DNA of 64,000 nucleotides, taken from assembly GCA_000998425.1 (NCBI GenBank), contig LCDG01000002.1, positions 35,178 through 99,177 on the forward strand, in the 5' to 3' direction. This DNA is from Candidatus Nomurabacteria bacterium GW2011_GWC2_42_20. Lineage in GTDB: Bacteria > Patescibacteriota > Minisyncoccia > Phycocordibacterales > UBA1550. A model generated the notes under the pieces. The model was not told where the DNA came from. It saw only the letters and a list, made by a program, of their open reading frames with translations, and did no database searches. Both the position numbers and the translations under genes were made by a program. Below are positions 2,726-61,180 of this stretch, piece after piece (positions within the stretch are counted from its first letter, which is position 1; each line of letters starts with the position of its first letter).

Positions 2726-3220
2726 CTAATTGATCGTTACAATACCTGTTGGAAGAACCAATATTGTCGTACTCGATGTAGTGCCAACAACCAATAGAGT
2801 TGTTGTTGCATTTTGACTTGTTGCGCCAGTGATTTTTTCAAAAAGAAGCTCTGATCCGCCACCATTTATAACGATTGGTGACAAAATAACAGCAGTATCA
2901 AACACATGTTCCTCATTTGTAGTTGCACTAGGAGAATATGTATCACCCTGGAAAAGAACCACCTTCCCAGCCTCAAAATGAACCCCAAATTGATCATCAT
3001 ACTTTGACGATACAGAGAGTATGCGCGCTCGGTTAATTATAGAAACTAGCTCCTGCGATTCAGTGTTCAAAAGACTGCTTCGTCTAAAGTTTGTAAAAGA
3101 TGGCAGTATGGTCGCCAAAATAACCCCCATGATAGCTATCACAATCAGTAACTCGAGGGCGGTAAAACCACGACGAACCGAATATTGAATATTGAATGTT
3201 GAATGTTGAATTGCTGGCAT
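2726..3220 (-). CDS. pseudopilin (GspH/FimT-like) with prepilin-type N-terminal domain
   Basis: ...VRRGFTALELLIVIAIMGV. Start preferred at Met14 (complement 3218-3220) because of the upstream AGGAAGTTGAAATG RBS. The longest ORF extends to 3259. Confidence 0.6.
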   Translation of the reverse strand: MPAIQHSTFNIQYSVRRGFTALELLIVIAIMGVILATILPSFTNFRRSSLLNTESQELVSIINRARILSVSSKYDDQFGVHFEAGKVVLFQGDTYSPSATTNEEHVFDTAVILSPIVINGGGSELLFEKITGATSQNATTTLLVVGTTSSTTILVLPTGIVTIN

Positions 3221-3275
3221 TTCAACTTCCTGTCTTGTATTTTTTATTCTATATTCCATATTCTATATTCTACAC

Positions 3276-4496
3276 TTAAATATTGCTCATTACTGAATAC
3301 ATTGGAGAGATCATCGATATCGCAAAAAATCCAACCGCGCCTCCAATGAACACCATAAGGAGCGGTTCAATAACAGTAGACATGTTTTTTGTCGCCTCAC
3401 TAACCTCATTTTCATAAAACAGAGCGAGATTAAGCAACATCTCTGAAAGCTTGCCTGTCTCCTCGCCAACTTCAACCATGTCACCAACCAATAACGGGTA
3501 AATATCATTTCCCATAAATGATGATGAAAGTGGTTTACCTTTTTGTACACTCTCGGCTGCGACATTCATCACCTCTTTATAGTATGAATTTTGCAAAACA
3601 TCCTTCGTTATATTTATTGCCTCTACCATATCAACACCAGAAGCAAGAAGCGACGACAATGTGCGCGCAGTACGAGCAGAATTTGATTGACGAACAAGGT
3701 CTCCAACAACTGGCAAACGAAATGACACCTTTTCAAAAGCTCGACGTCCACCCTTTGTACGAAGAAGCATTATAAAGGCGGTAATAATGCCAATGATCCC
3801 AACGATTCCCAACAAAAGGTTGTTTGTAAGAAAATCAGAGATCCACATAATAATCTTTGTGCTTGTCGGGAGCTCTGTGTTCAGCTCTTTAAATGTTGCA
3901 GCGAGGGTAGGCACGACATAAATGAACATCAGCACACCAATGATAAAGAGTGTTGCAATAACCACCGTAGGGTATATCAGCGCGCCTTTTATTTTCTTCT
4001 TCAATAAGTAGCTCTTTTCAAGCTGGTCTCCGATAACAAGAAGTGATTCTGAAAGTCCACCAGACTCCTCTCCTGCGCGAACCATTGAAACAAAGATTGG
4101 TGAAAAAACTTTTGGGAATTTTGCCATTCCAGCAGAAAGCGTTGACCCCTTGCCAATCTCATCAATCAGAGTTTTTAACGTTTTTTTGAGGGCTGGATTT
4201 TTTGTTTGTCGTTCTTGAATAGATATACCACGAGACAACGACAGCCCTGCTTTCATCATTGAGCTTAGGTTGTGCGCAAATACGATTAACTCTTGTACCT
4301 TTACACGAGAGAGTTTCTCGTTTATCGTGTCCATGTTTATGTTAAAAGTAAGTCCAGTTTTTACTTCCTCTACCGATATCACTGTTTTGCCAGCGCTTCT
4401 CAAATCAGCAGCAACAGTAAAACGATCTGCGCCTTCAACCTCTCCTGTTGCGTCTTCGCCGGATAGTTCTCGTACTTTATATTTAAATTTTGCCAT
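3276..4496 (-). CDS. pilC: type IV pilus assembly platform protein PilC (GspF family)
   Basis: 406 aa. Two T2SSF-like repeats and three TM segments. Sits directly downstream of the PilB ATPase. Confidence 0.85.
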   Translation of the reverse strand: MAKFKYKVRELSGEDATGEVEGADRFTVAADLRSAGKTVISVEEVKTGLTFNINMDTINEKLSRVKVQELIVFAHNLSSMMKAGLSLSRGISIQERQTKNPALKKTLKTLIDEIGKGSTLSAGMAKFPKVFSPIFVSMVRAGEESGGLSESLLVIGDQLEKSYLLKKKIKGALIYPTVVIATLFIIGVLMFIYVVPTLAATFKELNTELPTSTKIIMWISDFLTNNLLLGIVGIIGIITAFIMLLRTKGGRRAFEKVSFRLPVVGDLVRQSNSARTARTLSSLLASGVDMVEAINITKDVLQNSYYKEVMNVAAESVQKGKPLSSSFMGNDIYPLLVGDMVEVGEETGKLSEMLLNLALFYENEVSEATKNMSTVIEPLLMVFIGGAVGFFAISMISPMYSVMSNI

Positions 4497-6467: not shown

Positions 6468-6616
6468 GAAGGTTAATGGAATTTAGGATTACAAATTAGT
6501 ATCATAATTTTCTAAATTCTATATTCTACCAATCTAGTATAGCAAATATATTAATACATAGCTGTGTAAAACTAAAAAGAAAAGGCGACATCACTGTCGC
6601 CTTTGTTTATTTATTT

Positions 6617-6874: not shown

Positions 6875-7036
6875 AATAATCCTCCTATTTTCAAATATTT
6901 AAAAATAACAAATAAATTTCTAAATTCAACATACAATACTTCTCACAAAGTACCACTTTTAAAAATAAAGTCAAGTTTGACATACTGTAATGATTTAGTA
7001 TAGTGAGTGGGTTAATGTCCGTCCCGAAAGCGGGCT

Positions 7037-7160
7037 TTTTTATTAGCGACGCAGACGAATTAGCAAATTCGCGTCTTGGACGAAGATGAAACAGAAAGTA
7101 ATCACTTTCTCATTTCCGAGCCGACACGTAAGTCAATTTGCTAATTGAGGAGCTAATATT
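7037..7160 (+). repeat. intergenic repeat element, copy A (family ttttATTAGCGACGyAGA...TTCCGAGCCGA...)
   Basis: About 85% identical to the reverse complement of 61059..61180. Shares its 5' module with 55986..56147. Follows a hairpin plus T-run at 7017..7042. Confidence 0.6.
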
Positions 7161-7192
7161 TATTAATATTAGAAAAATCACCAGAAAATATC

Positions 7193-20541: not shown

Positions 20542-20982
20542 CTATAGCACAATATTATCTAAAAATCTAACTCGAGCTCGCCTGTTGTAAATATCGAGCT
20601 TCACTGTTATAGCGTCAAAAACCCAGTCTGGCTCATCCCCTCTATATTTTTCAATCAAATACATCTGTATTGTGCGAGCTAAACGCTTTAGTTTATATGG
20701 ATGAATATTGTCCTCTGGTCTATAGCTATCTGTTTCTGAATTAGCAAATTCATGTCTTTGAAGCATAGAAACATTTTTACCAATGTTTTCACGTGTAACT
20801 GTTTTTACTTCAATAAAATGCAGTATTTTGCCCTTTTGGGCAATAATGTCGATTTCACCGCACTTTTTTCGGTAATTTTGGCAAATTACAGAAAAACCCT
20901 TATTTTCTAAGTATTTTTTTGCAACATCTTCCCCAATTTTACCAATTTTCTGCTTTTCTGTAGGCTCCGCCATTAAAACCAT
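20542..20982 (-). CDS. YraN/UPF0102 family endonuclease-like protein
   Basis: ...GEIDIIAQKGKILHFIEVKT... is the family core. Confidence 0.7.
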   Translation of the reverse strand: MVLMAEPTEKQKIGKIGEDVAKKYLENKGFSVICQNYRKKCGEIDIIAQKGKILHFIEVKTVTRENIGKNVSMLQRHEFANSETDSYRPEDNIHPYKLKRLARTIQMYLIEKYRGDEPDWVFDAITVKLDIYNRRARVRFLDNIVL

Positions 20983-24569: not shown

Positions 24570-24739
24570 ACACACAGTATATCTAAGTGAGTGAGTGAAG
24601 TGCAAATACGGACTTTACACTTCCGAGCGAACGCAAGATATATTGTACATAGTTATATAGCGAACCATTGTACATTTTACGAATAGATAATAGACTTACT
24701 TATAGATATAGAGAACATTCAAAAGAAAGGAGGTGTATC

Positions 24740-24964
24740 GTGAGCACTTTTTCTACATATGATGAAGACGAGCAATACAAAATAGCTCTGCAACAATTCC
24801 AAACACTGCAGACGAGTGTAGTTGACCTGCGAAGGGCAGTAATTTTGTTAAGAGGCAACACATTGATAGCGTTGCAACGCTACAGACAAACAAAAGCCCA
24901 ACTCAAGAAATGTGAGGCTGAACTTACTCACATGCACAGAGTTCTTCATGGTGACGAGGAATAG
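24740..24964 (+). CDS. hypothetical small protein (GTG start after AAAGGAGGTG RBS)
   Basis: Strong RBS. Terminator hairpin at 24970..25013. Confidence 0.3.
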   Translation: MSTFSTYDEDEQYKIALQQFQTLQTSVVDLRRAVILLRGNTLIALQRYRQTKAQLKKCEAELTHMHRVLHGDEE

Positions 24965-25017
24965 TCTCAAAAAACGCGCCGGGCAATTATCCACCAGCGC
25001 GTTTTCTTTTTTTGCTG

Positions 25018-25992
25018 TTATTTACCCTTTCCGTGAAATTTTTTATGAACACTGCGAAGCTCGCTGTCAGTAATATGTGTATAAATCTGCGTCGTGGAAA
25101 TATTTGAATGACCAAGCATCATCTGCACCGAACGAATATCTGCACCATTGTATAGCAAATCGGTCGCAAACGAGTGGCGCAAAATGTGCGGAGTAACCTT
25201 GTCCATAATGCCGGCCTTTGCTGCGTAAAATTTCACCATTCGCTCTATTGAGCGTGGTGTGAGGCGCATTGATTCTCCGTCAGAAAAGGACCGCCCTTTT
25301 TGAATCCCCAAGGGCGATCCTTTTTCGAGTCCGCCAATGCGCACAAAGAGAGCGTCGTCCATATCTGTTCGTTTTTTCAAATATGCAGATACAGCTTTTT
25401 TTGCATCCTCTGAAAGAAACACCACCCTAACTTTTTCACCCTTTCCACGCACTGATATTTCATCACGGGTAAGGTCGATATCACGAGAGAGCGCACACAA
25501 CTCTGAGAGGCGAAGCCCAGTAGAAAAAAATAATTCAAGAATCGCTTTGTCGCGAAGTTCTTTTACAGAATCTCCATTAGGTGCATCGAGTAGCCTACGC
25601 AAATCCTGTGGAGTTAATAAATCAATCGTACGTTCTGCAATCTTTGCCAGTTCTATCTTTTCTGGCGCATATGACTCGACCCCACGCTTTCGCAAATATT
25701 TTAGAAAACTCCTGATTGCAATGAGGTAATAATTTTGTGTTTTCTTTTTAAGAGTTTCTTGACGCCCTTCACGCACCCCAGCATTTTGTCGATTTAGCCA
25801 CAACCGAAAAGAGCGTATCATTTCATCATCAATGTCAGCCGGCTCCTTTGCCCCACTTGCTGCCAAAAAACGAGTGATGTATCTCTCATAGTTTTCAATA
25901 GTTTTCAGGCTTCTCCCGCGCTCGATTTCCAAATATTCTAAGTACTGCCTCGCAAGGACACCTAGCGTTGTCTGTTGGATATTGTGCGACAT
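25018..25992 (-). CDS. tyrosine site-specific recombinase XerC/XerD family
   Basis: C-terminal catalytic motifs ...HILRHSFATDLL...LGHSNISTTQIYTHI. Confidence 0.85.
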   Translation of the reverse strand: MSHNIQQTTLGVLARQYLEYLEIERGRSLKTIENYERYITRFLAASGAKEPADIDDEMIRSFRLWLNRQNAGVREGRQETLKKKTQNYYLIAIRSFLKYLRKRGVESYAPEKIELAKIAERTIDLLTPQDLRRLLDAPNGDSVKELRDKAILELFFSTGLRLSELCALSRDIDLTRDEISVRGKGEKVRVVFLSEDAKKAVSAYLKKRTDMDDALFVRIGGLEKGSPLGIQKGRSFSDGESMRLTPRSIERMVKFYAAKAGIMDKVTPHILRHSFATDLLYNGADIRSVQMMLGHSNISTTQIYTHITDSELRSVHKKFHGKGK

Positions 25993-26158
25993 ACAAACAG
26001 TATAACGCGTGAGCAAAAAGATGCGAAACAGCAGTCACAACAAAACACGACATTCCCATAGGCATTACGTACCGTACCGCAGTACCTATTGACACCCGTA
26101 CTCAAGTGTGCTAGCATGCAATTACTAGCGATTGGCTAGGATTTTTGAGGGGTACAAA

Positions 26159-26275
26159 ATGAAATATCGTTTAATGATGTCAAGAGGCTGTTCACACAGC
26201 GGCCCTTGTGGTACAAAATACCACTCAAACAGTGGGCACGGATGGTGTGCTCGTTGCAGGAAGTGCAACCCATGA
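26159..26275 (+). CDS. small Cys/His-rich protein (38 aa), not in the ORF track
   Basis: MKYRLMMSRGCSHSGPCGTKYHSNSGHGWCARCRKCNP. GAGGGG RBS 6 nt upstream. Followed immediately by terminator 26284..26318. Confidence 0.45.
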   Translation: MKYRLMMSRGCSHSGPCGTKYHSNSGHGWCARCRKCNP

Positions 26276-26283
26276 GGCAATGT

Positions 26284-26318
26284 GGGGAGATGGTTAATTC
26301 CGTCTCCCCCCTTTTTTT
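26284..26318 (+). terminator. rho-independent terminator
   Basis: ggggagatggttaattccgtctcccc + cc + ttttttt. Confidence 0.7.
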
Positions 26319-26505
26319 ATTTCGACTAGCGAGGCGCGTGTGGACGAGTACTCTCGCAGACAGCGTCCGAGCGACGACGAAATATAGGTCAATACCGCGT
26401 GGTCTCAGCGTCCAAGACGTGAATTTGCTAATTCAGCCACGCTTTTGTACGAGCTAAGCGAGTTCCAAGTATTGCACTGCGGTCTCTGCAGTAGGGGCCT
26501 ATATT
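26312..26505 (+). repeat. intergenic repeat element, copy C (long form with aatataggt...acctatatt terminal inverted repeats)
   Basis: Shares aataccgcgtgg...cacgcttttg(c/t)acgagc...ctgcggtct(t/c)tgc...cctatatt with 55986..56147. Carries the gaatttgctaattc unit also seen at 7037..7160 and 49550..49573. Confidence 0.6.
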
Positions 26506-34200: not shown

Positions 34201-34282
34201 AATGTTGAATGAGTAAAAAAGAGCGCGCGTGACCTACGGCCATGCGCGCTCTTCAATATTCTAAATTCTATATTCCACCCAA

Positions 34283-35359
34283 CTAGAACGGATTCTTTGC
34301 GCCACGAACCTCAAAGTGAAGGTGCGGGCCTGTTGACTTCCCAGTATTACCAACCTCTCCAATCGGTTGACCCTTATCGACACGTGCGCCTATTGGTGTA
34401 TAAACAGCGCTTAGGTGCCCGTACAGTGTTTGCGTCCCATTTGGGTGCTCAATAACTAAGTAGTTTCCATAACCACCAAACCATGGGTTGGAGAGTGTTT
34501 GGAAACGACTTACGATAACTGCCCCTTCTGCTGAAGCATATACTGGTGTACCTATTGGTGCGCCATAATCTACACCATTATACCCATGAATCCCCTGTGT
34601 CTTATGCCCATCTGGTACTGGGTGTGAGTAATAGCCACCAATAGAAGGGTACGCAGCAATCACTTTGGAGCGACTTACATTAGCCTTGCCAGACAGTGCT
34701 ACTGAGGCCTCCTTCCCGTTAGGGATAATCACTACATCACCAATAGAAAGTTTCTGATCAACAGTGATATTATTAAACTCTAGAATTTCATCAATGTCCC
34801 CTTTGTACTTTTTTGCTATATCTTTAAGCGTGTCCCCCTTTTTTACAACATGTTGAACTCCATCTATGGGTAGAATAACCAAATGCTGTCCTACACGTAG
34901 GCTTGCGCCACGAGAAATGTCGTTAGCCCAGAGAATTGTGTTAACGGTTACATCAAACATTTTTGCTATTTGCTCAATCGTGTCTCCTGAGCGTACAACA
35001 TATAGACTAACCTTGCCTTGCCGGCTACTTGATTCGATATCTGCAATGGTGCCAGACGGACCAACTTCGGAAGAAAAAGCTTGATCATCCATCGTAATAT
35101 CACCACCGCCAGTAGCTTTTTTCGTATCAAAATTTACAACACCCTCCAAAAAGGCGATTGTCTGAGAATTTTGTGCTTCTGCGCGCGCGGGTGGAGTCTC
35201 GACGCTCTCAGACCTGATAAATTTACTAAACAAATACGACGACGTACGAGCCTGCGCTTGGGCTATTGGCATACTTAGCCCAAATAACACAAAGGTTAAA
35301 ACGAGTCCAACGCTCGTGAACTTCGAAAAATGTGTATATTTCGCCCAGCCTGCTTTCAT
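34283..35359 (-). CDS. M23 family metallopeptidase with signal peptide and two LysM domains
   Basis: LysM repeats YVVRSGDTIEQIAKMF / HVVKKGDTLKDIAKKY. M23 motifs HxGxD...HLHFE. Start chosen at MKAGWAKY. Confidence 0.85.
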   Translation of the reverse strand: MKAGWAKYTHFSKFTSVGLVLTFVLFGLSMPIAQAQARTSSYLFSKFIRSESVETPPARAEAQNSQTIAFLEGVVNFDTKKATGGGDITMDDQAFSSEVGPSGTIADIESSSRQGKVSLYVVRSGDTIEQIAKMFDVTVNTILWANDISRGASLRVGQHLVILPIDGVQHVVKKGDTLKDIAKKYKGDIDEILEFNNITVDQKLSIGDVVIIPNGKEASVALSGKANVSRSKVIAAYPSIGGYYSHPVPDGHKTQGIHGYNGVDYGAPIGTPVYASAEGAVIVSRFQTLSNPWFGGYGNYLVIEHPNGTQTLYGHLSAVYTPIGARVDKGQPIGEVGNTGKSTGPHLHFEVRGAKNPF

Positions 35360-43173: not shown

Positions 43174-44784
43174 CTACTGTAAATTAACAATTCCATCCCC
43201 ATTAAAATCAAGTTGGGTCGCCAAATCATTAAATACTGCAAGGTCTGCAGCGCTCACAACCCCATCCCCATTGAAGTCTGAACCTCCGCAATTTTCAAAA
43301 GCTTTGTGACCGATGCAATAGTTTATAATCTGCTTGTCAGAATACCCAGTCGTGTCAAAAAATCTAGACTCAAACCAATCTAGCTTCCAACCAAAAGCAA
43401 GCCCTGGCCCACTAAAAAGGTCGTTCGCAAAAGCAAGATCACGATTGTCGATCGTACCATCCTCATTAAAATCTGCCTGCGCGCAGATCCCTGAGATTGG
43501 TGACGCTTTACACGAATTAAACACTGCCATATCTGCGCCTGCTGACCCAAAATCAGCTAGCCCGTCATCGTTTAGGTCATATTGCGCAATTGTTGCGTAT
43601 GTTATCTTGCCAAGAATGTTCTCAAAATACGGCTGCACCGGCGGCCCATCGTCGTATGCCTGCTGTCTGTTAAAAAATGTTTTTGAGAGCAGTGTGCGCA
43701 AGTCAACAACACTGCCATTTGATGCGCTCGTTACCCATGTTTTGAAATTACTATATTGTCCATCACTCCCTGCCTCACCAGGAGACACGCCATCTGCTCC
43801 CCAAACAAAACCAAAGGCCATATTTAAATAGCCATTATCTGCAGCACACACACTTCCAAGCACAGTTGACCTCAACCATGTTGCACCATTACATGCAACG
43901 GTTGGCATTAGCACTCTCCCTGCTGGCCCACCACACGGTGTCGTCTGAGCTGGGATGTCCTCCTGCTGTGTCTGTTGCGGATGAGGGAGCAAGCTACGGA
44001 CGTTTGCTGTTGATATTTTAAAGAAACAAGACTTTGCAGATTGTGGGGTGTCGTTTACAAGCTCTAATGTTGTGTTTTGGTTTACATTAAAAGTGTATCC
44101 TTTTGTCCTAAAAAGTCCTACGTCAGCGGTGTCTGTTTTCCCGTCACCATTTAAGTCGGTCTGCGCGCATAAATCGTATGTCGTGCTCATTATGCAGTGA
44201 GAAATAATCGAGTAGTCATTATTGCGATCAATCAACGCATTTATTTGATCCTGCGCTTGAGTGTTTGCTGCCACAATAGCAGCGTTGTTATCAATTGGCG
44301 CCGCTACACCGTAAACATCTGGCTGAACGAGTGGTGTTGTCGGTAGAGAAAGAGGAATATGTACACCACCACCTGCTGTAGTAGGCGCCGGCGACGTCCC
44401 TATTGGGGGTAAGCTAAAATTAAACTGCACCAGGCCTGGGTTGATAGAGTTTAAAATGAGATATGACGTCAAAACGAGAGTAAGCCCAATTAGGGCGTTC
44501 AAAATACGCTCCTTTGCGTCTTGTTTTGCGCTGGGAGCTATCCCTGCAACGACATATTGAGTACCTCCAATAATTGCGACAAGTATCGAGACTCCCGCAC
44601 CGAGAGCGATGAGAAGCTTGAGCATCCCACCTAGGTATGTGGAGAGGTTGGTTGTTTCTGAGCCAGTAGCTCCAGTAAATGTACCTGGGAGAGGTGCTAG
44701 TGGGGTGTAGTCTTGGGCGTGGGTAAACGAGGCAAACACAAAAAACGTTGCCATAAGAGAGATAAATATAACAATCTTTTTCAT
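43174..44784 (-). CDS. VirB2/TrbC-like pilin module fused to a large extracellular domain with dockerin-like Ca-binding repeats
   Basis: Signal peptide, then two hydrophobic helices separated by SAKQDAKER (GGMLKLLIALGAGVSILVAIIGGTQYVVAG...ILNALIGLTLVLTSYLIL). C-terminal D(L/F)N(G/D/E)DG...D repeats, four copies. Confidence 0.5.
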   Translation of the reverse strand: MKKIVIFISLMATFFVFASFTHAQDYTPLAPLPGTFTGATGSETTNLSTYLGGMLKLLIALGAGVSILVAIIGGTQYVVAGIAPSAKQDAKERILNALIGLTLVLTSYLILNSINPGLVQFNFSLPPIGTSPAPTTAGGGVHIPLSLPTTPLVQPDVYGVAAPIDNNAAIVAANTQAQDQINALIDRNNDYSIISHCIMSTTYDLCAQTDLNGDGKTDTADVGLFRTKGYTFNVNQNTTLELVNDTPQSAKSCFFKISTANVRSLLPHPQQTQQEDIPAQTTPCGGPAGRVLMPTVACNGATWLRSTVLGSVCAADNGYLNMAFGFVWGADGVSPGEAGSDGQYSNFKTWVTSASNGSVVDLRTLLSKTFFNRQQAYDDGPPVQPYFENILGKITYATIAQYDLNDDGLADFGSAGADMAVFNSCKASPISGICAQADFNEDGTIDNRDLAFANDLFSGPGLAFGWKLDWFESRFFDTTGYSDKQIINYCIGHKAFENCGGSDFNGDGVVSAADLAVFNDLATQLDFNGDGIVNLQ

Positions 44785-48726: not shown

Positions 48727-49413
48727 ATGGACAACGAAACAACGCAAATTTTTATGGAACAACTAGGTAAACTACCGAGCACGGTTGTCGATTTCATTTC
48801 ATCTTCAAGTTGGGATGCTGATCTAGACGAAATAGGGTCTATGTATAACCTGCATGAGGAAGATCTTGTTAAGTTTAAACAGGAAGTAACTCTTGTACTT
48901 GCTGGACTAATACACCCAGATGAGTTTCGTGGCACACTAGAGCAAGAGGTTGGTTTACAAGGAGCTGTACTCGACGCGATAGTCAGTGCTACAGAAGAAA
49001 AAATCTTTGCGCAGGTTCGCCCCGCACTCATGGAGTTTTTTGAACAGGAGTCAAGCCAGTATGAAAGTCAAACGGAAGAATTACAAACTGCCCAGCCTGC
49101 ACAAGAAATCCCAAGAGCCCCGCAACGAGTATGGGAAAAAGAGCCTGATATCGTCCCAGACAACCTACCAACCGATGAAGAACCGGAGTCATTCCTCCCA
49201 CCAATTCCTCCAAAGGCACCAAAGGCGGAAGCCGATATTCCAAGCTGGGACATCACACCAGCACACCCATTTGAAGAAAAAATGAAAAAGGTATTTACCG
49301 CAGGGCAACAGTCTATGGGGGATCTAACGATAGAGCCTGCCACACCACAGGTCGCACCACCAGACACTACGCGCACATACCACGCAGACCCATACAGAGA
49401 GCCGATAGAGTAG
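48727..49413 (+). CDS. acidic Pro-rich protein, hypothetical
   Basis: 228 aa, pI acidic, PxxP-rich C-terminus. Confidence 0.4.
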   Translation: MDNETTQIFMEQLGKLPSTVVDFISSSSWDADLDEIGSMYNLHEEDLVKFKQEVTLVLAGLIHPDEFRGTLEQEVGLQGAVLDAIVSATEEKIFAQVRPALMEFFEQESSQYESQTEELQTAQPAQEIPRAPQRVWEKEPDIVPDNLPTDEEPESFLPPIPPKAPKAEADIPSWDITPAHPFEEKMKKVFTAGQQSMGDLTIEPATPQVAPPDTTRTYHADPYREPIE

Positions 49414-49586
49414 AATGTGGAATATGGAATTTTGAATATTGAATAGTGGGCACGGATTCCTGTATTAATTTTGGTGTTCATATTCCGCACAATACGGTAT
49501 AATATTTAGGTGGATAAAGAATATTTATTTAGATTATTCCAAAATTCATGAATTAGCAAATTCACGCCTGGCGCTATTCTACCCTT

Positions 49587-50042
49587 ATGCAATTTCATAT
49601 TCCTCAATACATCGACATAGAAGATAAGCTCTTTGGCCCACTCACACTCAAACAGGCTGTCTATGTCGCTGGCGGTCTCGGTGGGGCGTATCTTGTTTAC
49701 CGTATTATTCCATATACGGTGATAAAGGGTCCAATTATTTTGGGTATCGCGGGACTCACGTGGGCTCTGGCTTTTTACCCAAAAGAAAAGCTTGGTAAAC
49801 CTTTTATCGAGATCCTTGAAGCAGCTTTCAACTACATGGTGCGTGACAAACTTTACACCTGGAAAAAGACCACAAAAGAAGCCACCGCTGGGAAAGAAGA
49901 GGATTTCATTAAGTCGCAGTCTTTTTCCACGCCAACTGTTCCAACAGGAAAACTGTCTAGCACCTCATTCAACCTTGATGTGCGCGGAAAAGAAGAACCC
50001 GAAGAAAAAGTATTGGGAGGAGATGATACAATATTCAAATAA
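49587..50042 (+). CDS. VirB3/PrgI-like two-helix membrane protein
   Basis: MQFHIPQYIDIEDKLFGPLTLKQAVYVAGGLGGAYLV...IILGIAGLTWALAF. Sits immediately upstream of the VirB4-like ORFs. Confidence 0.5.
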   Translation: MQFHIPQYIDIEDKLFGPLTLKQAVYVAGGLGGAYLVYRIIPYTVIKGPIILGIAGLTWALAFYPKEKLGKPFIEILEAAFNYMVRDKLYTWKKTTKEATAGKEEDFIKSQSFSTPTVPTGKLSSTSFNLDVRGKEEPEEKVLGGDDTIFK

Positions 50043-53755: not shown

Positions 53756-54601
53756 ATGAAATACGTATTATCAATTTTTATTGGAATCATCTTTACAACT
53801 CTCTTTGGAGTATTTGTCGCCCACGCCCAAAACTACACCCCACTGGCGCCACTCCCACTTGGTGAAGGCGGTACACCACTTACTACTTACACAATTAGCT
53901 CATACCTCGGTGGGATGCTCAAGCTACTCATCGCTCTCGGTGCGGGAGTCTCGATACTTGTTGCTATCATTGGTGGCACTCAATACGTTGCTGCGGGTAT
54001 AGCTCCTAGCGCAAAACAGGACGCAAAGGAGCGTATTTTGAACGCACTAATTGGGCTTACTCTCGTTTTGACGTCATATCTCATTTTAAACTCTATCAAC
54101 CCAGGCCTGGTGCAGTTTAATTTTAGCTTACCTCCAATAGGGACAAGTCCGATGGCTACGACGACGCCCATAGTAGCAGAACCATGGCCAGACGATGCCT
54201 CAGAGCGCGCGCAGCTTGCAAGTAAAAATATTATGGTCACGGGAACAAAGACATCTACAACTTGCAAAACAATATGGGAAAAAGGGTGCACAAGTGTTTA
54301 TCAATTAGGGTCAGGTGCGATAAGTGGTCTTTTATCCCTAAAAGATTCGTGTTTGAGTTGTGCTATTGTTGTTACAGGTGGTACTGAATATTGGAGCCAT
54401 AGCGTGAACACAGCACATAGGCCAGGAAACTCGGTGGTTGACATTGATAATGGCAGTTCCGCACTTAACCAAAAAATTAGGTCCGGGACATCTCTAGGTG
54501 TTCAGTCCTCATGCAGTAGTCTTGGTGTTGCATATCGGCTTACTGGTCCAGGAGCGGGTCTATATGTGGACGAGGGAAACCACTGGCATGTTTGTTACTA
54601 A
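53756..54601 (+). CDS. VirB2/TrbC-like pilin module fused to a Cys-containing C-terminal domain (paralog of 43174..44784)
   Basis: aa 49-132 are identical to the other copy. The underlying DNA is about 93% identical in inverted orientation. Confidence 0.5.
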   Translation: MKYVLSIFIGIIFTTLFGVFVAHAQNYTPLAPLPLGEGGTPLTTYTISSYLGGMLKLLIALGAGVSILVAIIGGTQYVAAGIAPSAKQDAKERILNALIGLTLVLTSYLILNSINPGLVQFNFSLPPIGTSPMATTTPIVAEPWPDDASERAQLASKNIMVTGTKTSTTCKTIWEKGCTSVYQLGSGAISGLLSLKDSCLSCAIVVTGGTEYWSHSVNTAHRPGNSVVDIDNGSSALNQKIRSGTSLGVQSSCSSLGVAYRLTGPGAGLYVDEGNHWHVCY

Positions 54602-55990: not shown

Positions 55991-56147
55991 TTAGCGACGT
56001 AGAGCGAGCGAAGTGAGAATGTACTCATTCACACTTCCGAGCCGAGGAGTTAATATAGGTAAATACCGCGTGGTATCTGCCACGCTTTTGCACGAGCGAA
56101 ACGAGTCCAAACATTACCCTGCGGTCTTTGCCGCAGGGACCTATATT
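55986..56147 (+). repeat. intergenic repeat element, copy B
   Basis: ttttattagcgacgtagagcgagcg...ttccgagccgagg...aatataggt...ccgcgtggtatctgccacgcttttgcacgagc...ctgcggtctttgccgcagggacctatatt. Confidence 0.6.
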
Positions 56148-57560: not shown

Positions 57561-57650
57561 TTAGATTGAATTTTGAATGTAGGATATTGGATATCGAATG
57601 GATGTGGGCCCAATTCTACATTCTAGCTTCAATATTCAATATTCCACCCC

Positions 57651-58047: not shown

Positions 58048-59406
58048 ATGACAAACAATACACAACTTTGGGAAAAAACATTATTTGAACTCGAGAGGGA
58101 GCTATCTCGTGCAAATTTTAGCACTTGGTTTAAAAACACGTCTATTTTAAAACAAGACGATGGTGTTGTTATTGTTGGTGTGCCTAATGAATTTGTAAAA
58201 GATTGGCTACAAAACAAATTCCACAAAACCATCCTTCGTTCTCTTCGAAATCTTTCTGAGAATGTCCGCGGAGTAGAATACACTGTTTGTAAAACAGAGA
58301 CACAAAAACCAGACCAAGGTGTTATTGAGAAGGCTATACACACCCAAACTACAGAACTCCCTTTAGTAAACCTTTACACAAACAAGGAAGATGGATTAAA
58401 CCCTCGATACACTTTTGACGATTTCATCATTGGATCGTTCAACGAACTCTCATTTGCCGCATCACAAGCTATCCTTAAAAAAGTAGGTACTAATGTTTAT
58501 AACCCGCTTTTTATTTATGGAAACACCGGCCTTGGAAAAACACATCTTATCCAGGCGATAGGTAACGAGGTTAAAAAACACTACCCAAACAAACGTGTTT
58601 TTTACACAACTTCCGAAAAATTCTCTGTTGATTATATAAACTCGGTTGGTCAGGGCTCCAAAGCTATGGCTATTTTCAAAAATAAATATAGACATTACGA
58701 CCTGCTTATTATGGATGATATACAATTCTTATCTAACAAAGAAAAGACCCAAGAAGAGCTTTTTCATATTTTTAATGAGCTTTACCATAACAATAAACAA
58801 ATAATCTTTTCTTCTGACAAGCATCCAAATTATATTCCAGCTCTTGAGGCTCGTTTAAAGTCGCGTTTTAGCGCTGGAATGATTGTTGATATTCAAGAAC
58901 CTGAATATGAATCTCGTCTCGCTATTTTGCGCGCAAAAGCTAAGCATCAAAAATTTTTCCCTCCTGAGGAGATTATTGAGTACCTTGCTTCCTCTGTTCA
59001 AGGGAACATCAGGGAGCTTGAAGGTCTTTTAAATGGTATTATTTGCCAATCTGAACTTAAAAACCGTAACCTTACACTGAGTGAGATAAAACCTTTTATT
59101 AAAAACACTTCAAAACCAAAAAAACTTTTAGCCGTGAAAGATATCGTAAAAGTTATTTGCGAGTTTTATAATATAGAAGAATCCTTTATTTATGAAAAAA
59201 CGCGAAGGAAAGAGATTTTAAAACCTCGCCAAATAGCTATGTTTATACTTCGTGAGGATTTTAATATTTCCTACCCAACAATTGGCCAAAAGTTGGGTGG
59301 TCGTGATCATACCACCGTGATGCATTCGTGTGAAAAGGTAAAAATTGATATAAAAAATGATTTATCTCTTATGCAGGAAGTTGATCAGATACGAGCGATG
59401 TTTTAA
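58048..59406 (+). CDS. dnaA: chromosomal replication initiator protein DnaA
   Basis: Walker A GNTGLGKTHL, Walker B LLIMDDIQF, C-terminal DNA-binding helix ...IGQKLGGRDHTTVMH. Confidence 0.95.
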   Translation: MTNNTQLWEKTLFELERELSRANFSTWFKNTSILKQDDGVVIVGVPNEFVKDWLQNKFHKTILRSLRNLSENVRGVEYTVCKTETQKPDQGVIEKAIHTQTTELPLVNLYTNKEDGLNPRYTFDDFIIGSFNELSFAASQAILKKVGTNVYNPLFIYGNTGLGKTHLIQAIGNEVKKHYPNKRVFYTTSEKFSVDYINSVGQGSKAMAIFKNKYRHYDLLIMDDIQFLSNKEKTQEELFHIFNELYHNNKQIIFSSDKHPNYIPALEARLKSRFSAGMIVDIQEPEYESRLAILRAKAKHQKFFPPEEIIEYLASSVQGNIRELEGLLNGIICQSELKNRNLTLSEIKPFIKNTSKPKKLLAVKDIVKVICEFYNIEESFIYEKTRRKEILKPRQIAMFILREDFNISYPTIGQKLGGRDHTTVMHSCEKVKIDIKNDLSLMQEVDQIRAMF

Positions 59407-60994: not shown

Positions 60995-61058
60995 AAGCGG
61001 TGTTTACCATGGGTCCAGAACATACTAGTTCGTATGTGTCTCTAATATAACTGGATAC

Positions 61059-61180
61059 AATATTAGATCATCATTTAGCAAAATGACTTACGTGACGGCT
61101 CGGAAATGAGAATAGGTACACTCTTTAAAGTCTTCGTCCAAGACGCGAGTCTGCTGACTCGTCTACGTCTATAATAAAAA
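61059..61180 (-). repeat. intergenic repeat element, copy D (inverted orientation)
   Basis: Its reverse complement aligns with 7037..7160 (tttttatta[t]agacgtagacga...cgcgtcttggacgaaga...ctcatttccgagccg.cacgtaagtca.tttgctaa.tga...ctaatatt). Confidence 0.6.

Follow-up and report, generated by a model that had tools for sequence, protein, structure and literature searches.

Introduction

The closest described counterparts of the repeats reported here are the insertion sequences of the IS200/IS605 family and the repetitive extragenic palindromes (REP). IS608 inserts 3' of the tetranucleotide TTAC, which is retained in the left flank with no DNA gained or lost, and it acts on one strand (PMC3201880, PMC5934647). 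Its hairpins are located 19 nt and 10 nt from the cut sites (PMC3201880), and the cleavage sites are read by pairing with guide tetranucleotides (PMC3201880, PMC5934647). The mobilisation of REP sequences and of the bacterial interspersed mosaic elements (BIME) is believed to depend on one domesticated gene acting in trans, which encodes the REP-associated tyrosine transposase (RAYT, or TnpA-REP, a Y1 enzyme) (PMC3333891). Here, we analysed a 64,000-nt stretch of contig LCDG01000002.1 of Candidatus Nomurabacteria bacterium GW2011_GWC2_42_20 (hereafter the window), in which we sought to characterize a family of short structured repeats, referred to below as the elements and present in the window in five copies, A to E.

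The Patescibacteria, or Candidate Phyla Radiation (CPR), account for a large part of bacterial diversity; their genomes are very small and are considered poor in mobile elements. We describe the anatomy of the elements, their covariation, their target motif, their polymorphism between strains and their distribution. The interpretation that we put forward, and to which we give about an even chance, is that they form a Patescibacteria-wide family of hairpin-structured mosaic elements, non-autonomous and mobile at present or until recently, which move as a folded single strand. By analogy with the systems above, transposition of this strand would depend on an enzyme acting in trans.

Results

The elements share a covarying fold built around invariant strands

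The elements are about 75-270 nt long and start two nucleotides ahead of an invariant GCGACGTAGAGCGAG. From 5' to 3', they consist of NN-GCGACGTAGAGCGAG, a variable hairpin (P2), the strand (C)CGAGCCGAGGA, the closing strand of helix P1, and a helix P3 that encloses zero to three hairpins, up to a terminal ...TTAY. With a slash marking the left end of the element, the 5' domain can be written as (TTA-Y)/N-N-G-C - GACGTAGAGCGAG - N - (P2 hairpin, 10-12 bp) - (C)CGAGCCGAGGA - G-C-N'-N'-R, where the strand GC-N'N'-R closes P1 against the first four bases of the element. In short copies, the 3' part is the P3 hairpin followed by A-Y and nothing else. The P3 of long copies contains a central GCGAGC-rich segment and two hairpins, P4 and P6, both with an AATAC-like sequence ahead of them. 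The AT-rich P2 shows no sequence relationship to the 3' hairpins, which are GC-rich. The GC-rich P6 followed by ACCTTTATTT at the 3' end of the element gives a terminator-like score.

P2 has no fixed sequence, and all 12 of its 12 pairs show changes on both sides. In the model-fitted alignment, 93.7% of the paired cells of P1 and P2 are standard pairs, compared with 72% in shuffles (0 of 500 shuffles matched the observed value), and slid controls were 35-62% paired. P3 covaries as well, with the variants ATAGGTT/GACCTAT, ATAGTCC/GGACTAT, AAAGGGT/ATCCTTT and AAAGGTT/AACCTTT, and so do P4 and P6 (RNAalifold). Little or no variation is seen in the two unpaired joining strands, also where they fall outside the search pattern, and about 24 unpaired nucleotides are near-invariant across very distant CPR lineages.

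Two features distinguish the strands. The G-C pair of P1 is replaced by G-U in 19 cases and by another non-pair in 1, and the hairpin loops G(CTTG)C and C(TCT)G occur 10 and 14 times on the written strand against 0 and 1 times on its reverse complement. This G-U excess, along with the pyrimidine loops, argues that the folding strand is the written strand, be it as DNA or as RNA.

The elements lie 3' of TTAY, which a putative internal guide could read

TTAY directly precedes the copies on their 5' side, within T-rich sequence; at many but not all sites, this sequence is the T-run of an intrinsic terminator. Flank statistics were calculated on a metagenome set of 121 copies selected independently of the flank. 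Before GCGACG, T was found at positions -6 and -5 in 87-95% of copies and A at -4 in 97%, followed by Y at -3 and then N, N. The flank Y and these two bases pair with the internal GC-N'N'-R. The Y-R pair (6-34) is distributed as UA 60 / CG 23, and the next P1 pairs as UA 65 / AU 15 / GC 7 (7-33) and AU 58 / GC 22 (8-32). Including the flank positions, P1 is 89.8% paired, compared with 21-41% in slid controls.

The right end consists of the 3' strand of P3 and then A-Y. The left-flank Y and the right-end Y are associated (T-T 69, T-C 12, C-T 5, C-C 18; odds ratio 20.7, p = 2e-8, with a uniform regular-expression rule), and structure-based right-end callers, which are noisier, gave an association in the same direction. 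By direct reading, 18 of the 23 TTAC-flanked copies end in TTAC. Flank Y, internal purine R and terminal Y change in concert, with a main subfamily using TTAT as target and another using TTAC. The NN dinucleotide is absent as a repeat at the right end, and tandem copies are joined as ...TTAT/TAGCGACG, from which it follows that the element spans NN to TTAY and lies 3' of a TTAY. Its left end TAGCGACG and its right end ...CCTTTAT are unrelated. The left cut site is 18 nt from the foot of P2, and 8-9 nt separate the right end from the foot of the last hairpin.

The bases R-(T/A)-A that follow GC-N'N' are complementary both to the flank TTAY, with which they extend P1, and to the element's own terminal TTAY, with which they extend P3. 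We infer that these two pairings are mutually exclusive and account for the three-way covariation. The predicted guide is located at the P1/P3 junction, 3' of P2, and a single guide appears to serve both ends.

Two copies are absent from a related strain

We compared the window with a related strain (GCA_004299265.1, locus L020) that is 99.9% identical over 13.4 kb and 93-95% identical beyond. All the same genes are present at this locus and copies C and D are absent, with intergenic gaps of 79 and 64 nt versus 228 and 190 nt in the window. The empty site of D reads GTTTTTAT/TAGTATTAG, i.e. TTTTTAT/TAG, and the filled site GTTTTTAT/TATAGACG...CCAGTTATAT/TAGAGAC, i.e. TTTTTAT/TATAGACG...GTTATAT/TAG. 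The C junction is less clear, as the inner part of the neighbouring terminator also differs in L020. A solo copy of a ~26-nt hairpin unit described below, at 49550, is present and identical in both strains. The orthologous regions upstream of nusA, where copy A lies, are 100% identical in four other samples and hence uninformative, and the element is kept at this site in three relatives whose NusA proteins are 88-100% identical.

The fall in strain identity from 99.9% to 93-95% occurs at the right arm end (window ~54144; L019 ~13424) of a 262-nt inverted repeat, 91% identical (44378-44639 / 53901-54162), which links two genes with matches to Pfam families resembling type IV secretion system pilins. 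This suggests a recombination breakpoint at the repeat.

The family is distributed across the Patescibacteria

To assess the distribution of the family, we scanned a collection holding one genome per species with the pattern TTTTTATTAKMGACGYAGA, which gave at least 117 matching stretches. An independent core, GAGCCGAGG, was present at the expected distance in at least 70 of the 117 matches listed. Judged by the record titles shown, the core-bearing GC/T-variant matches listed come mostly from metagenome-assembled genomes (MAGs) of Patescibacteria/CPR, with some from unclassified "bacterium" MAGs. The core-bearing matches listed that fall outside CPR labels are two short contigs binned to Gammaproteobacteria. 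Those listed for other phyla are KM or other variants of the pattern, located in coding sequence and without the core. The lineage labels of the MAGs comprise Saccharibacteria, Paceibacteria/Parcubacteria, Minisyncoccia, Patescibacteria group, and Doudna-, Yonath-, Vogel-, Falkow-, Shapiro- and Nomurabacteria; partial or variant copies were found in Taylor- and Wolfebacteria MAGs. Several MAGs carry more than one copy, and several have three or more contigs bearing matches. Among the matches listed, the closest relatives of the elements in the window are in MAGs labelled Saccharibacteria (L100).

An independent metagenome scan with the pattern GCGACGTAGAGN{30,60}GAGCCGAGGAG gave at least 120 loci, mostly from groundwater and sediment. 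The window species itself is also found in several groundwater and other metagenomes, according to exact-protein matches. Two patterns run against the IMG/VR viral contigs gave chance matches in coding sequence only and no family copy, and no family match was found in collections of phage and plasmid records. With Rfam 15 at gathering thresholds, the whole window contains 4 tRNAs only; a permissive Rfam 15 search of copy C gave sub-threshold matches, mostly over the upstream terminator hairpin. Nothing relevant on the family was found in the open-access full-text literature, including with a query by conserved sequence, and a description outside open access is possible. The family has apparently not been described so far.

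Copies in the window

A preliminary description of the window, made from the sequence alone, had reported four copies of a repeat and a fragment. All of them were recovered where they had been placed, and both their similarity and the excess of their modules over shuffled sequence agree with this. Their edges were redrawn from family-wide evidence (Table 1), and the count proved incomplete, since a fifth, degenerate copy (E) and a second solo hairpin unit, located in the yraN open reading frame (ORF), are also present. The paired changes noted between A and D are genuine (CGAATT-AGCA-AATTCG in A, CGAGTC-AGCA-GACTCG in D), and a second hairpin compensates too (TCAATT-TGCT-AATTGA versus TCATTT-TGCT-AAATGA). 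The hairpin highlighted for its covariation does covary, and it is part of a secondarily inserted ~26-nt mini-module, not of the core of the element. The idea of a conserved single-stranded structure was borne out by the core itself, through the 12 of 12 P2 pairs changed on both sides and the covariation of P1, P3 and P4. The hairpins described as "ccgcgtgg" and "ctgcgg" correspond to P4 and P6, and the aatataggt/acctatatt arms, taken for terminal inverted repeats (TIRs), are the internal helix P3. The statement that copies always follow a gene-end hairpin did not hold: D follows a stop codon without a terminator-like hairpin, E lacks a T-run, and the hairpin before A belongs to a promoter-proximal leader instead of a gene end. 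Nor are the copies unique to the window, given the spread of the family across the Patescibacteria.

According to the repeat finder, A and D share 54 nt at 91% and 50 nt at 86% identity (84% of columns in the alignment), and B and C share 38 nt at 82% and 36 nt at 83% (77% of columns); three copies of the GAATTAGCAAATTC unit are also grouped. Compared with dinucleotide-preserving shuffles, TTCCGAGCCGA has 3 matches versus 0.55 expected, GAATTAGCAAATTC has 5 sites (equivalent to 10 strand matches) versus 1.12, and CGCGTCTTGGACG has 4 matches versus 0.64. Copy E matches the family model weakly (15.3 bits, E = 0.077); its sequence and right-end module match short forms in L052, in L135 and in D. 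The genes of the window include those for type IV pilus and type IV secretion functions, with dnaA at 58048.

Table 1. Positions of the element copies, their parts and the solo mini-modules in the window.
Feature	Position	Strand	Description
Copy A	7044..7169	+	Short form: 5' domain and P3 hairpin; left flank TTAT at 7040-7043; between the nusA leader hairpin and the nusA start codon
Mini-modules in copy A	7056-7082 (forward); ~7125-7148 (inverted)		Insertions
Insertion context of copy A	7017..7043	+	Outside the element; leader hairpin GTCCGTCCCGAAAGCGGGC, then T-run ending TTAT
Copy B	26321..26504	+	Long form, 5' domain diverged; left flank TTAT at 26317-26320; follows the terminator of a small ORF
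Mini-module in copy B	26409-26434		Inverted, in the P4 loop
Copy C	55992..56146	+	Canonical long form; 84.5 bits, E = 1.3e-22 with family model R1
Copy C, P1	55990-55995 with 56049-56054		Helix
Copy C, joining strands	55996-56008; 56037-56048		GACGTAGAGCGAG; CCGAGCCGAGGA
Copy C, P2	56010-56037		Hairpin
Copy C, P3	56055-56060 with 56139-56144		Helix
Copy C, P4	56068-56085		Hairpin
Copy C, P6	56117-56138		Hairpin
Copy C, terminal AT	56145-56146
Copy D	61045..61173	-	Same sub-lineage as A, both mini-module insertions present; 3' of TTAT (61177-61174, minus strand), right after the stop codon of an 842-aa penicillin-binding-protein gene
Copy E	24581..24658	+	Degenerate short copy; retains P1, P2, CCGAGCG and the ...TTGTACATAGTTATAT right end
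Solo mini-module	49550..49573	+	GAATTAGCAAATTC plus ACGCCTGGCG; upstream of a PrgI-like ORF at 49587
Solo mini-module	20736..20769	+	Within the yraN/UPF0102 coding sequence; 29 of 34 positions identical to the module of B

A ~26-nt mini-module inserts into elements and elsewhere

The mini-module is a ~26-nt GAATTAGCAAATTC...CTTGGACG hairpin. Upstream of nusA in the relative L203 (NusA 88% identical), the same leader hairpin, both element ends and a canonical 5' domain are present, and the element lacks either of the two hairpin units of copy A. At the same site in L031 (NusA 93% identical), a long version of the element carries several mini-module units. For the unit CGA-NNN-AGCA-N'N'N'-TCG followed by CGTCTTGGACG, five different stems were found, all of them complementary (GAATT, GAATC, GAACT, GAGTC and GATTT). 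In several Saccharibacteria-type loci, the mini-module is located inside elements, at varied positions and in varied orientations, as well as outside them. On this pattern of occurrence, the mini-module is best read as a separate unit that inserts secondarily into elements and elsewhere. As A and D share both insertions, D derives from an A-like copy.

The mini-module at 20736-20769 lies in frame in the yraN ORF (20542-20982, minus strand; PF02021), where it encodes ...MLQRHEFANSE.... The alignment of this protein to its sole solved homologue (3fov) ends just ahead of the mini-module segment. A mobile hairpin may have been inserted here in frame, within coding sequence, as known for the Rickettsia palindromic elements (RPEs). 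A second kind of insert, a GC-rich palindromic GCCTGCCTG...CAGGCAGGC, was observed at varied element positions in loci from other CPR lineages (L022, L042, L074, L118, L123, L126 and L224), and GGAGCGAAGCG-type inserts were found in P2 loops. Small hairpins seem to have been inserted repeatedly into the elements.

Genomic environment of the elements

We evaluated the genes adjacent to the elements. Of the upstream genes, 34 were co-oriented with the element and 16 divergent from it (median gap, 54.5 nt); of the downstream genes, 24 were co-oriented and 31 convergent. No recurrent neighbour gene was detected: the ORFs within 3 kb of more than 70 copies belong to scattered, unrelated housekeeping families. 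No conserved promoter was found ahead of the elements. A strong adjoining hairpin was present at 34% of copies versus 22% of chance pattern matches, suggesting a preference for a T-run plus TTAY and not for terminators as such; terminator-dependent insertion was rejected on the same figures.

Directly ahead of nusA and upstream of copy A, a strong promoter-like site at 6977-7004 (TTGACA-16-TATAGT, 11/12) is followed, about 12 nt further on, by a short hairpin and T6. The nusA leader hairpin is also found in the relatives L031 (~3030-3090) and L203 (minus strand, ~480-560). In the distant relative L299 (~2760-2860), an analogous promoter, hairpin and T-run are present, with no element there. 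The leader hairpin looks like a conserved leader terminator (attenuator) of nusA. The hairpins upstream of B (26284-26309) and A (7010-7035) have GGTTAAT(G)TCCGTC(C/T)CC in common, with stems that otherwise differ; this may be coincidental.

A tyrosine-recombinase gene (25018-26016, minus strand) has copy E on one side and, on the other, a Cys-rich small ORF (~26160-26270) and copy B. The region 24581-26504 could be a small integrated module, or the gene could be a plain chromosomal Xer gene. Two further repeats were observed in the window. An AT-rich repeat, TTCTAAATTCTATATTC or its complement GAATATTGAAT, is present in intergenic regions at 3177-3281, 6503-6537, 34252-34286, 49407-49449 and 57565-57649, including the rpmH-dnaA spacer, and may be a regulator-binding or origin-related motif. 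A 300-nt direct repeat with 87% identity (1-300 / 1394-1693) lies in adjacent minus-strand ORFs without Pfam matches, which are probably paralogous genes.

Discussion

That the repeats are mobile, as proposed in the preliminary description, is in keeping with the absence of C and D from the related strain, the existence of tandem copies and the many unrelated gene contexts. The same description had listed a repeat similar to miniature inverted-repeat transposable elements (MITEs) among its candidates, which does not fit the asymmetric ends of the elements, without terminal inverted repeats and without evident target duplication; the apparent inverted repeat being the internal helix P3, a classical MITE was rejected. 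In the mechanism that we propose, the element would fold and move as a single strand, both cleavage sites would be presented by pairing to one internal guide, and a trans-acting enzyme would cut and rejoin 3' of TTAY. Such a process would resemble the "peel and paste" transposition of IS200/IS605 and the relationship between REP and RAYT.

Several points weigh against this single-strand transposition model. No IS200/IS608 TnpA was found by tblastn in 1.6 Mb around the elements, with approximate query sequences. A RAYT-like Y1 protein was detected in the same 1.6 Mb at two loci (L044 and L049) and as a fragment at a third (L221), 1.2-2.8 kb from elements. As a mobiliser, the L044 gene, which is intact, was rejected because it is flanked by unrelated inverted repeats of its own, and the L049 gene because its flanks contain no element copy. 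No ORF-bearing "autonomous" version was seen among the copies examined by eye, the automatic right-end caller being too noisy for this purpose. IS200/IS605 transposases bind sequence-conserved hairpins that are alike at both ends, whereas P2 varies freely in sequence and does not resemble the 3' hairpins, and the guide is located 3' of P2 and not 5' of a hairpin foot. Selfish DNA would rarely show such near-invariance of its unpaired strands over a whole superphylum, which fits equally well with catalysis or with a conserved partner in the cell. With the origin placed at dnaA (58048), the written strand of all five copies is on the leading-strand template; this placement is inferred, n is 5, and the GC skew of the window is flat and uninformative. 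In IS608-type elements, the active strand is on the lagging-strand template. Within P2, G-U and A-C mismatches number 24 versus 32 in the MAFFT alignment and 26 versus 17 in the model-fitted alignment, with no clear asymmetry. Finally, D provides a single clean empty site, whose sequence would also be compatible with a short target duplication of 3-5 bp (TATTA).

The Y1 gene of L044, a Patescibacteria MAG, is bordered by the inverted repeat AAAGGGTACCTGACCCCCTTT (1869-1895 and 2582-2605). The gene and its repeats look like a separate REP-like system in the CPR.

The invariance could also mean that the elements are a structured non-coding RNA with a cellular function (protein-binding, 3'-end-associated or small catalytic), for which DNA mobility is secondary or absent; a small RNA family had also been among the candidates of the preliminary description. 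We regard this as rather unlikely. In its favour, some 24 near-invariant unpaired nucleotides combined with covarying helices are a classic signature of functional RNA, one P1 pair has 19 G-U, independent hairpins repeatedly carry G(CUUG)C, a stable RNA tetraloop type, and the variable peripheral hairpins are like the expansion segments of structured RNAs. Retention upstream of nusA in three relatives (NusA 88-100% identical) would be expected as well. Such an RNA would, however, lack a conserved promoter and start after T-runs, where upstream transcription should end; the orientation of downstream genes is random (24 co-oriented versus 31 convergent), no association with a gene was found, and no Rfam 15 family matched. 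It does not predict the match between left-flank and terminal Y, the tandem junctions sharing TTAT, or presence and absence between strains. In another reading, the elements would be a new class of guide-directed mobile nucleic acid in which the invariant purine-rich joining strands form a catalytic or universally recognised core and one guide selects both the TTAY target and the element's own end. Movement would occur by self-catalysis (ribozyme- or DNAzyme-like cleavage and ligation) or through a host enzyme universal in the CPR, with no dedicated transposase. This version, which we hold to be improbable, would account for the absence of an associated gene as well as for the invariance throughout the superphylum.

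A substrate of a site-specific recombinase (Xer- or integron-like) is a quite improbable alternative, in which folded strands or small circles would recombine at the core TTAY in the manner of attC or CTX-phage hairpins. The left junction and the right end share one short core with the empty site, tandem arrays occur, and structure-based recognition as for attC suits the freely varying sequence of P2. In the window, the tyrosine-recombinase gene at 25018-26016 lies between copies E and B. Against this, no recombinase recurs beside elements elsewhere, the gene in the window could be plain chromosomal Xer, and neither attC R'/R'' core sites (GTTRRRY) nor a cassette organisation was found. Very doubtful, in our view, is a derivation from guide RNAs encoded by transposons (TnpB/IscB omega-RNA, IS110 bridge RNA or similar), of which the elements would be relics or copies acting in trans, with a guide that reads into the flank or pairs with the target core; the preliminary description had suggested orphaned guide or omega-RNA-like relics. 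Known omega-RNA scaffolds seem too large for the shortest copies (~75-85 nt). The paired "guide" is 3-7 nt long and the same in most copies, so that it is not programmable, and no Rfam omega-RNA or HEARO match was obtained. The features specific to the written (top) strand and the pairing of internal sequence with the target flank do agree with a guide RNA, as does the T-rich TTAY at the left, which resembles the target-adjacent motifs of IS200/IS605 (PMC3201880). No recurrent protein gene lies within 3 kb of more than 70 copies, no search aimed at TnpB/IscB having been made, and an IS200/IS605 TnpA is again missing from the 1.6 Mb around the elements.

The family occurs in many CPR classes with several copies per genome, and the window alone has five copies and two solo mini-modules in 64 kb. 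If the elements are relatives of single-strand transposons, their layout would be new, the target and the element's own end both being read by a single internal guide, and they would point to a mobilising enzyme common to the CPR. If they are RNA, they would be among the most widespread unannotated structured RNAs of the CPR. The elements are a ready marker for strain-level variation and a likely cause of assembly breaks in CPR MAGs. Since target choice is apparently set by base pairing, they are also a candidate programmable insertion system.

Several other known systems share one or more features with the family. Bacterial group II introns of class C have their insertion sites immediately after intrinsic terminators, recognise the upstream flank through a few base pairs with an internal sequence, end in AY and can form tandem arrays, which is a functional analogy only. 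Group II introns are longer than 600 nt, with six domains, a GUGYG start and usually a reverse transcriptase; all of these are absent from the elements, and this identity was rejected. Integron attC sites have R''/R' core sites (RYYYAAC / GTTRRRY) at cassette boundaries and an integron integrase; the consensus of the elements has no such cores and their flanks are ordinary housekeeping genes, so attC was rejected as well. The BOX elements of pneumococci, the ERIC sequences of enterobacteria, the Correia elements of Neisseria and the RPEs of Rickettsia are, like the family described here, short, structured, modular, multi-copy repeats, intergenic in location and with mobilisation unknown or in trans. 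RPEs sit in coding sequences, as does the mini-module in yraN. Correia elements have TIRs and TA duplications, and the other mosaic families have no defined target. None of the four has a sequence relationship to the family, and we know of none with guide-to-flank covariation or conservation at the level of a phylum. The tandem interspaced guide RNA (TIGR) arrays reported in the CPR are long, regular tandem arrays of dual-spacer units beside a gene for a Nop-domain Tas protein (PMC12045711). The elements were not assigned to them, the copies being dispersed, with no recurrent neighbour gene and no Nop-domain gene among the Pfam calls of the window.

The family resembles IS200/IS605 elements and their short non-autonomous derivatives in several respects. 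The ends are asymmetric and lack TIRs, and insertion is 3' of a T-rich tetranucleotide with no evident duplication. As in IS608, subterminal hairpins lie at similar distances from the cut sites (18 and 8-9 nt here, compared with 19 and 10 nt), the cleavage-site sequences are complementary to internal sequence, and some features are strand-specific. The elements differ in that no tnpA or tnpB was found in or near copies (by clustering of ORFs within 3 kb and by tblastn for TnpA, with no search aimed at TnpB), in hairpins that are not conserved in sequence and differ between the ends, and in their long invariant purine-rich joining strands. They have one guide at the P1/P3 junction and not two guides, each 5' of a hairpin foot. 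Their right end carries the target tetranucleotide, whereas that of IS608 is TCAA against a TTAC target.

With REP and BIME, the family shares high-copy intergenic palindromic units, a mosaic build and a location often near gene 3' ends. Differences between copies preserve complementarity, an invariant GTAG is present 5' of the hairpin, and RAYT-like ORFs exist in CPR loci. This GTAG is 7 nt from the foot of P2 and part of a longer invariant strand, whereas in REP it is adjacent to the hairpin. Copies are single or in direct tandem, without inverted REP/iREP pairs, and the RAYT-like gene that was inspected (L044) has different flanking repeats. The units are multi-helix structures of 75-270 nt, compared with 30-40 nt for the REPs of E. 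coli. Finally, REP families are found in narrow taxa, whereas the family described here spans a superphylum.

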